DNA from: Escherichia phage AV108 | Strand: one strand, 5' to 3' | Length of the DNA: 64,000 nt | Sequence record: OR352938.1 | Shown here: positions 30,552-30,965 of the stretch, piece after piece | How positions within the stretch are numbered: the first letter of the stretch is position 1 | How the letters are laid out: the number at the start of each line of letters is the position of its first letter | Position numbers and translations under genes: made by a program | Notes under the pieces: model-generated | What the model was told of the DNA's origin: nothing | Databases searched by the model: none | The model's input: the letters and a program-made list of their open reading frames with translations, nothing else

Positions 30552-30965
30552 TTACATAGATTCCGTAAAGGTACGGGTGATAATATCAAGTTGTTGTTCG
30601 CGTGTCAAGGCGTTGAAGCGGGTAGCATAACCACTGATTCGAATTGTAAGCTGCGGGTACTTCTCAGGATGTTCAACCGCATCAAGAAGAGTCTCCCGAC
30701 GCAGTACATTCGCGTTGAGATGATGACCCGCGTTACTATTTACCCCGTTATCAATTGCTAAAGGACGGAAGCTAGTTGTGTGCAGTGCCAGCGAATCGAC
30801 GTCTTCTGCGGTGATCACATGGTCTTCTGCGAAAGTTTTACTAACAATTACTTTAGCGCCGATCAGGGCTTTCGGTTCGGATACCAGAATCATAGGCGCG
30901 AAATGTCCACCGATAATAGTACCTTTATGCTCACCTTTCATGATTTGAATTGCTTTAAATTCCAT
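30552..30965 (-). CDS. autonomous glycyl-radical cofactor (GrcA/YfiD-like; T4 Y06I-type)
   Basis: 137 aa; C-terminal [56 protein letters not shown] carries the RVSGY glycyl-radical motif. Confidence 0.8.

Follow-up and report, generated by a model that had tools for sequence, protein, structure and literature searches.

A vs.6-type glycyl-radical cofactor gene of a Krischvirus with a diverged 3' end linked to a free-standing HNH endonuclease gene

Introduction

Only two spare parts of pyruvate formate-lyase (PFL) have been validated, Escherichia coli YfiD and T4 Y06I (PMC8683613, with reference to Wagner et al. 2001). PFL activase (PFL-AE) puts a radical on YfiD or Y06I, and both proteins bind O2-cleaved PFL, which restores activity (PMC8683613). 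YfiD residues 61–127 have the same fold as PFL residues 693–759, and YfiD residues 1–60 are disordered and required to bind cleaved PFL (PMC8683613). Spare parts for other glycyl-radical enzymes are also the subject of speculation in that paper (PMC8683613).

The free-standing endonucleases of T4 are a second described system that bears on the present locus. They are inserted between genes and cleave some distance off in a neighbouring conserved gene, with co-conversion (PMC2988022). The pairs SegG/gene 32 and MobE/nrdB show intron-less homing with co-conversion and with donor alleles that are immune to cleavage (PMC2988022). In addition, genes are inserted, deleted and replaced between RB49 and phi1 by way of PeSL cassettes, which are composite elements between genes: an AT-rich region, a sigma70 promoter and a stem-loop that overlaps or adjoins it stand just 5' of the SD/ATG of a variable gene (PMC2839356).

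In this report we describe a locus in a 64,000-nucleotide stretch of DNA from Escherichia phage AV108 (OR352938.1), which is called the window below. It is quite probable that its grcA gene is both a vs.6-type PFL spare part and a mosaic allele derived from a homing HNH cassette. The gene type itself is ordinary, already known and annotated in many phages, phage-encoded GrcA being familiar since the work on T4 Y06I. The phenomenon is likewise conventional in T4-type phages; this is a tidy and apparently undescribed instance of it, and a literature search of incomplete coverage found no published account of the grcA-tail/HNH cassette. What is added here is a correction of the terminator position and the demonstration, by comparison of alleles, that the sequence of the catalytic tail, rather than the whole gene, travels with the endonuclease gene.

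The grcA gene and its surroundings

The window belongs to a Krischvirus, an RB49-like T4-type coliphage, and the 6 kb around grcA are 95–98% identical to most of the 58 Krischvirus records. The grcA (vs.6) coding sequence is on the minus strand at 30552..30965 and runs from ATG to TAA, with 137 codons plus the stop (ORF list). By inspection of the sequence, a Shine-Dalgarno element, GAGGTG, is located 4 nt 5' of the ATG (30970..30975, minus strand). The product is thus a small stand-alone protein with its own ribosome-binding site and terminator and with no PFL barrel. The peptide quoted in the first-pass annotation was found in this translation.

The order of genes on the minus strand is endolysin, vs.8 (31101..31586), a 41-aa ORF (30976..31101), grcA, the terminator, an HNH endonuclease gene, nrdC.11 (29193..29891) and the regB cluster. 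Matches to phrog_1488 and phrog_13848 extend across the upstream flank formed by vs.8 and the 41-aa ORF, which is syntenic in RB49, GEC-3S, JK32 and JSE. The nucleotidyltransferase gene nrdC.11 (Pfam RlaP), which is the downstream flank of the insertion slot, encodes a protein with 32% identity to T4 NrdC.11 (E 1e-50). The whole order is syntenic with T4 vs.8 – vs.7 – vs.6 – vs.5 ... regB, and T4 Vs.6 is likewise encoded by a stand-alone gene in the early-gene neighbourhood of the vs.8 – vs.6 – regB cluster.

The grcA/vs.6 gene was present and syntenic in all Krischviruses examined, and in RB49, Phi1 and JSE the orthologue carries the name vs.6. The protein of Krischvirus LF73P4 is 100% identical to that of the window, and the 98%-identical protein of Shigella phage JK32 is annotated as "autonomous glycyl radical cofactor" (GrcA). 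Homologues were found in approximately 1,580 of 50,697 phage records, including T4-like, T5-like, Klebsiella jumbo, Aeromonas and Vibrio phages. These data support the assignment of the window gene as the Krischvirus orthologue of T4 vs.6 (Y06I), a GrcA/YfiD-type autonomous glycyl-radical cofactor. The first-pass annotation had named Y06I as the T4 equivalent, reported to repair oxygen-damaged PFL; sequence and synteny bear out the orthology, and the spare-part role is described in PMC8683613.

Family assignment and the radical glycine

The Pfam Gly_radical match, the matches to 6OWR and PFL, the predicted fold and the synteny all agree with the earlier description of the product as a GrcA/YfiD-like autonomous glycyl-radical cofactor. 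Residues 78–118 match PF01228 (Gly_radical) with 58.7 bits (cut-off 22.2; E 9.8e-16). In the phmmer search of PDB sequences, the best match was E. coli GrcA/YfiD (6OWR; E 1.4e-28; residues 37–137), the C-terminus of PFL (residues 700–759 of 1H16/2PFL) matched with an E value of 5e-24, and the weaker matches after these two were to more distant glycyl-radical enzymes. The match to phrog_1209 spans the full length of the protein (4e-47). The top NCBIfam match was TIGR04365 (GrcA) with 114.5 bits, under the equivalog cut-off of 170; the scores of E. coli GrcA, T4 Vs.6 and RB49 Vs.6 were 233.9, 151.1 and 132.4, respectively. Since the validated T4 Vs.6 is also below this cut-off, the cut-off excludes phage members and leaves the function undecided. 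It was therefore regarded as uninformative for membership.

The predicted radical glycine is Gly112 (codon GGT at 30630..30632, minus strand) in the motif RISGYAT. In the multiple alignment it falls on G102 of GrcA and G734 of PflB, and so the residue that is decisive for the earlier identification is present. It should be mentioned that the E. coli GrcA sequence in this alignment has F38 where RefSeq has Y38, which does not affect the conclusions. The glycine loop differs from RVSGYAV by two conservative flanking changes, and G112, Y113, R116 and the RTFT helix are all kept. The HNH-linked allele alters four residues near G112 that are invariant in PflB, GrcA, T4 and RB49: V110I, V115T, S119A and R126L. 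Because these otherwise invariant positions adjoin the radical glycine, activation by PflA or the fit into PFL could differ, as judged from the sequence.

Over its last 60 residues, the window protein agrees with E. coli GrcA at 46/60 positions and with PflB at 44/60, and the reference values in the same comparison were 54/60 for RB49 Vs.6 and 59/60 for T4 Vs.6. The earlier wording, by which the C-terminal 60 residues were "almost identical" to these domains, is right as to clear homology but generous for the window allele. E. coli GrcA shares with the window protein the C-terminal fold, the equivalent of G102, an invariant 10-residue motif and the RTFTES motif, and presumably the mode of action; its loop, however, reads RVSGYAV, and few residues of the N-terminal half are identical. 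The alignment to the GrcA HMM begins only at residue 37. The motifs IQI.KG and A+.IVSKTFAED of this half are, however, common to the window protein, T4 Vs.6 and E. coli GrcA.

T4 Vs.6 is built of the same two parts; it has the N-terminal motifs, and its C-terminal glycyl-radical domain includes the radical glycine. Its overall identity to the window protein is 53–59%, depending on the alignment, and it is 120 residues in length against 137, the window protein having a 12-residue insertion in its N-terminal half. The C-terminal 59 codons of T4 vs.6 are 97.7% identical to E. coli grcA at the nucleotide level, whereas the window allele is approximately 70% identical to both. Compared with PflB, of which the C-terminal domain (residues 693–759; 2PFL/1H16) is the related part, the window protein is without the catalytic barrel of 690 residues and without the Cys418/419 site. 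Phage GrcA can act only as a detachable cofactor.

Structural model

An AlphaFold2 model of the window GrcA was built from 30 homologues. The mean pLDDT was 77, and residues 91–130 were at 87–92. In a Foldseek search, the C-terminal domain of the model matched the NMR structure of YfiD (6OWR) with an E value of 1.9e-5 and a TMt of 0.74, and it matched the PFL structure 2PFL with an rmsd of 2.7 Å across 51 residues. In the N-terminal half, β elements were predicted with pLDDT values of 55–86, while residues 1–60 of YfiD are disordered by NMR. The Foldseek matches of this N-terminal domain to KOW/ribosomal proteins were non-significant, and nothing is concluded from them.

Mosaic structure of grcA

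Comparison with RB49 divides grcA into two parts. Codons 1–68 (30762..30965, minus strand) are Krischvirus backbone sequence with 98% nucleotide identity to RB49, a dS of 0.09 and a dN of 0. Codons 69–137 (30555..30761, minus strand), which encode the glycyl-radical domain, form a diverged allele with only 66% nucleotide identity, a pS of 0.70, which is saturated, and a dN of 0.27. The breakpoint at codon 68/69 is sharp and falls where the N-terminal half gives way to the structured radical domain. Codons 1–68 would correspond to the disordered half of YfiD that binds cleaved PFL (PMC8683613).

The diverged 3' end is associated with the HNH gene. When the last 184 nt of grcA were used as the query, matches of at least 91% were obtained in exactly eight records, all of which carry the HNH gene; the 755 other matches, other Krischviruses included, were all at or below 80%. 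If shared ancestry is ignored, such an eight-of-eight coincidence would arise by chance once in C(58,8), or approximately 5e-10. The minimal HNH-linked segment consists of the third base of codon 109, codons 110–137 and the stop (30552..30639, minus strand). In these last 88 nt, 24 nucleotide differences from the RB49 type are fixed, and they are common to five independent HNH-carrying loci. Ten of them are found in the 21 nt that encode residues 110–116 around the radical glycine.

Upstream breakpoints vary among the HNH-carrying loci and are located at approximately codon 60, at codon 68/69 or at codon 109/110. In the metagenomic contig P0005, grcA is RB49-like and then passes into the HNH-linked 28-residue tail, and the same HNH gene adjoins. 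The backbone of another contig, P0016, is only about 45–77% identical to the window (nucleotide identities of 67% in nrdC.11, 74% in the 5' part of grcA and 77% in endolysin). Nevertheless, it shares the window sequence from 30640 to approximately 30030 at 90–97%; this region comprises the last 88 nt of grcA, which are 97.8% identical, the terminator and about 475 nt of the HNH gene. Allele comparison also revealed a 38-nt patch (codons 97–109; 30640..30677, minus strand) that is identical to RB49 inside the diverged block. Its 3' edge is the cassette boundary in both P0005 and P0016, and the patch is probably a homology anchor or crossover site. As read from these alleles, the mobile unit is the HNH gene with the terminator and the last 88 nt of grcA, not the whole of grcA. 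The mobility suggested in the first-pass annotation thus applies to this unit, while grcA as a whole is fixed and syntenic in Krischvirus.

Between the HNH-linked alleles of the window and JK32, the 3' half has a dN of 0.022 and a dS of 0.35, and the protein is therefore under purifying selection. Three sources of the divergence were considered. In-situ accelerated evolution is ruled out by the saturation at synonymous sites, by the abruptness of the breakpoint and by the recurrence of one identical tail in unrelated backgrounds. A recent origin of the 3' end in the host was rejected as well: among 5,426 E. coli genomes all matches were at or below 80%, and grcA itself was at 71.8%. As to a phage donor, the best match outside the eight HNH carriers was 76%, and none was found.

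The HNH endonuclease gene

The first-pass annotation had placed an HNH endonuclease next to grcA, and this neighbour is a gene for a 197-residue free-standing HNH homing endonuclease (HEG1; 29910..30503, minus strand). The protein matches NUMOD4 (2e-18) and HNH_3 (5e-9), and weakly the I-TevI DNA-binding domain; it also matches phrog_59. To judge from these domains, the architecture is typical of free-standing homing endonucleases. The reading frame is intact and is 87–98% conserved over five loci.

This gene was found in 8 of the 58 Krischvirus records (LF73P4, pEJ01, MIZ4, MIZ5, FL20, JK32, FL04 and G37-3). The slot that it occupies is a spacer of approximately 30 nt in RB49, where the flanks are collinear with the window, and sequence conservation with RB49 resumes directly past the HNH gene, at nrdC.11. 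No close relatives were found elsewhere; other matches were below 60%, and the best among the matches listed were at most 44%. When the flanking genes were clustered (UPGMA, approximately 1.2 kb), the HNH carriers were not monophyletic. Vertical inheritance inside one clade is therefore unsupported by this clustering, which covers only those 1.2 kb.

A second HNH family of 175–176 residues, 28% identical to the first, fills the same slot in JSE, phiS, 011D4, Whisky and several contigs. Each of its occurrences is paired with yet other grcA 3' alleles. In T4, no endonuclease gene adjoins vs.6. T4 MobD is encoded at the equivalent position upstream of nrdC.11, and it was considered as a homologue of the window protein; the E value was 0.044 with no real alignment, and the two are not homologous.

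Terminator and promoter-like element

An intrinsic terminator with a 10-bp stem, a GAAA loop and a T-tract is located at 30513..30546 on the minus strand (hairpin 30546..30523; -18.8 kcal/mol, z -3.5). The arms of the hairpin are AAGCCAATCC-GAAA-GGGTTGGCTT, and the T-tract follows. On the coding strand this element follows the grcA stop and precedes the HNH Shine-Dalgarno sequence. The earlier statement that grcA lies downstream of a terminator is valid only in plus-strand coordinates and must be reversed for the strand on which the gene is encoded. The same hairpin is found 3' of vs.6 in RB49 and GEC-3S, which have no HNH gene, and there it is annotated as a terminator. The hairpin is the native grcA terminator.

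Within the 3' end of grcA there is a sigma70-like promoter match, TTGACA-17-TATTAT with an extended-10 TG (30580..30608, minus strand; 11/12 match). It was seen in every HNH-linked allele and is missing from RB49-type sequence. The match is approximately 35 nt 5' of the stem-loop, which falls past the predicted transcription start.

Homing or passive exchange of the cassette

The pattern of the cassette is most likely explained by intron-less homing with co-conversion. Homing is favoured because the insertion is intergenic, its spread is sporadic, the diverged tract is variable in length and the transfer extends over distant backgrounds. The HNH endonuclease would cut HNH-less genomes in or near the 3' end of grcA, putatively within the last 88 nt of vs.6 or a short way from them. 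Repair would then copy the HNH gene along with a version of the radical domain that is immune to cleavage and still functional. The T-even free-standing endonucleases (SegG/gene 32, MobE/nrdB and SegF/gene 56; PMC2988022) offer a close parallel, with an intergenic endonuclease gene of sporadic occurrence and a linked diverged tract. At the window locus, in contrast, it is the catalytic glycine loop of an accessory protein of metabolism that the linked tract specifies, and homing is read from sequence.

An alternative explanation is that the HNH gene and the diverged 3' end of grcA became linked through modular shuffling, mediated by PeSL elements or short homology patches, in which case the HNH protein may be inactive. 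The PeSL cassettes are documented as drivers of exchange in RB49 and phi1 (PMC2839356), phages of the same genus, and the early region is hyperplastic here as well. In all alleles the junction coincides exactly with a conserved stem-loop, right after which comes the Shine-Dalgarno sequence of the variable gene; in the HNH-linked allele, the near-consensus promoter precedes this stem-loop by about 35 nt. The two elements suit a PeSL reading, though superficially. Furthermore, one diverged grcA 3' allele, that of P0012, has no endonuclease gene beside it. PeSL crossovers would, however, be expected in the intergenic element. In the window the promoter-like element is inside the grcA coding sequence, 5' of the stem-loop, and 88–270 nt of coding sequence belong to the exchanged tract, whose upstream ends vary. 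Such tracts fit gap repair with co-conversion better than PeSL exchange. Passive linkage also has to accommodate two HNH families that occupy the same slot, each with its own grcA 3' alleles, and the intact frame of the first, conserved at 87–98% at five loci. Shuffling of this kind thus seems unlikely. Among the PeSL examples of PMC2839356, no occurrence of "vs.6" was found.

With homing as the preferred explanation, a more specific proposal can be made tentatively, and the odds are slightly against it. The HNH endonuclease may recognise the sequence for the glycyl-radical loop or the C-terminal helix in HNH-less grcA, and the cassette may supply a cleavage-immune, functional tail as a module ferried between lineages. 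If this is true, the active core of an accessory metabolic gene of phages is rewritten time and again by a selfish endonuclease, a 28-codon protein module moves between phage lineages with an identity of only about 70%, and at least two endonuclease families compete for one slot. If the tail of T4 vs.6, which derives from the host, is considered as well, the radical domain would then be a module open to free exchange. Activation or oxygen repair might also be changed in the RISGYAT variant.

The locus can be regarded as a clean natural experiment on the movement of a catalytic tail, which the cassette of a neighbouring homing endonuclease appears to bring into distant phage backgrounds, and it is a ready test system for the target specificity of the HNH endonuclease. 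The natural variants RISGYAT and RVSGYAV bear on the tolerance of PFL activase and of cleaved PFL around the radical glycine.

Putative spare-part function

Since the window GrcA appears to have both halves of the known spare parts, a mechanism like that of E. coli YfiD and T4 Y06I is inferred by homology. In this mechanism, oxygen would cut the host PFL at its Gly734 radical, and the N-terminal half of phage GrcA would dock onto the cleaved enzyme. The C-terminal domain (approximately residues 71–137) would then substitute for the β-strand, glycine loop and helix that PFL has lost, and the host activase PflA would set the radical on Gly112. As a result, the output of acetyl-CoA and formate, and hence the fermentative supply of ATP, would be restored in the microaerobic infected cell. 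The client of phage GrcA is presumably host PflB and possibly TdcE too.

The HNH-linked allele might instead be a decoy or a damaged copy, which binds cleaved PFL or titrates PflA and does not restore activity. Of the four proteins scored against the GrcA model, it has the lowest value (114.5; the others have 132, 151 and 234), and the four substitutions near G112 described above are at otherwise invariant positions. The changes V/I, V/T and S/A are, however, conservative, and G112, Y113, R116 and the RTFT helix are retained. Purifying selection among the HNH-linked alleles is strong (dN/dS about 0.06), and five loci of differing backgrounds have one identical 28-residue tail. A loss of function of this kind is very improbable.

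Very improbable, too, is the proposal that phage GrcA serves NrdD of the same phage, as spare part or as regulator, rather than host PFL: although NrdD and NrdG are encoded by this phage, NrdD too belongs to the glycyl-radical enzymes, with RRVSGYLG close to its C-terminus, and further spare parts are speculated upon in PMC8683613, the two proteins have no alignable similarity beyond the short RVSGY motif (BLASTP left the glycine loop unaligned and gave as its best result a 9-residue chance match elsewhere, E 0.095), the C-terminus of NrdD has a different, Cys-rich architecture and the last 60 residues of phage GrcA are 73–77% identical to PflB/GrcA, and the proposal was rejected on these sequence grounds.

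With PFL as the presumed client, the window grcA would be a modest example of a phage that sustains host fermentation in microaerobic, gut-like conditions. The anaerobic reductase genes nrdD (12959-11100) and nrdG (9694-9194) are also present in the window and fit such a microaerobic lifestyle.

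Mosaic structure of T4 vs.6

Only 4 nucleotides separate T4 vs.6 (L006:2058-2420) from E. coli grcA (L017:194-577) over the final 59 codons (177 nt; 97.7% identity), whereas differences in the 5' part are saturated. The junction between the diverged and near-identical parts is sharp and lies at EGGQHLN. Within T4 vs.6, the GC content rises from 33% in the 5' part to 48% in the 3' part; the E. coli value is 49%. From these sequence comparisons, the radical domain of T4 vs.6 looks like the product of a recent gene conversion from host to phage. This host-like domain parallels the domain-level mosaic of the window grcA itself.

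The N-terminal half of grcA

The N-terminal half in Krischviruses contains a 12-residue insertion relative to T4 Vs.6. For residues 1-68 of the window protein (30762-30965, minus strand), AlphaFold2 predicted several β-strands with pLDDT values of 77-86, whereas NMR shows the N-terminal half of E. coli YfiD to be disordered. Between vs.8 and grcA there is a 41-aa ORF (30976-31101, minus strand; phrog_13848, E 6e-31), whose start overlaps the vs.8 stop and which is conserved in all relatives examined.

Endonuclease genes around grcA

The slot between vs.6 and nrdC.11 also holds, after the same terminator hairpin, a second family of HNH homing endonucleases of 175-176 aa, which are 28% identical to the HNH protein of the window. 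Members were found in JSE (L020:1498-2028), phiS (L012:2501-3028), and two further comparison sequences (L010:1322-1849 and L013:2468-2995). They are accompanied by other grcA 3' alleles, e.g. ...NVMSRDLLLDAVANPDKYP...RTFTEAM. A third endonuclease (AP2 + HNH, 184-191 aa) lies between the endolysin gene and vs.8 in some Krischviruses: JK32 (L004:3950-4525), KMB43 (L005:3384-3959), and phiS (L012:742-1317). In the window, this slot is a mere 62-nt spacer (31587-31648). A stretch of ~2.5 kb thus contains three endonuclease slots.

T4 mobD (L019:9430-10209) is directly upstream of nrdC.11, the relative position occupied by the window HNH gene (29910-30503); no homology between MobD and the window HNH protein was detectable (E 0.044). 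The target of mobD is given as unknown in a review of T-even free-standing endonucleases (PMC2988022).

On a metagenomic contig (L016:200-728, encoding the homologue P0012), the grcA 3' allele is diverged and mosaic, and the downstream spacer is of the RB49 type, without an endonuclease. Loss of an endonuclease, or a conversion that was only partial, may have left this arrangement behind.

Within the HNH-linked grcA tail, at 30580-30608 (minus strand), lies a match close to the sigma70 promoter consensus (TTGACA-17-TATTAT, plus TG), which is kept in all HNH-carrying loci and missing from the RB49-type sequence. A transcript predicted from this match would reach the HNH gene only by read-through of the terminator hairpin.

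A second glycyl-radical system

Besides grcA, the window contains nrdD (11100-12959) and nrdG (9194-9694), both on the minus strand and 99% identical to their RB49 counterparts. Their products, the class III (anaerobic) ribonucleotide reductase and the activase of this enzyme, are a second glycyl-radical system; RRVSGYLG is present in the C-terminus of NrdD.
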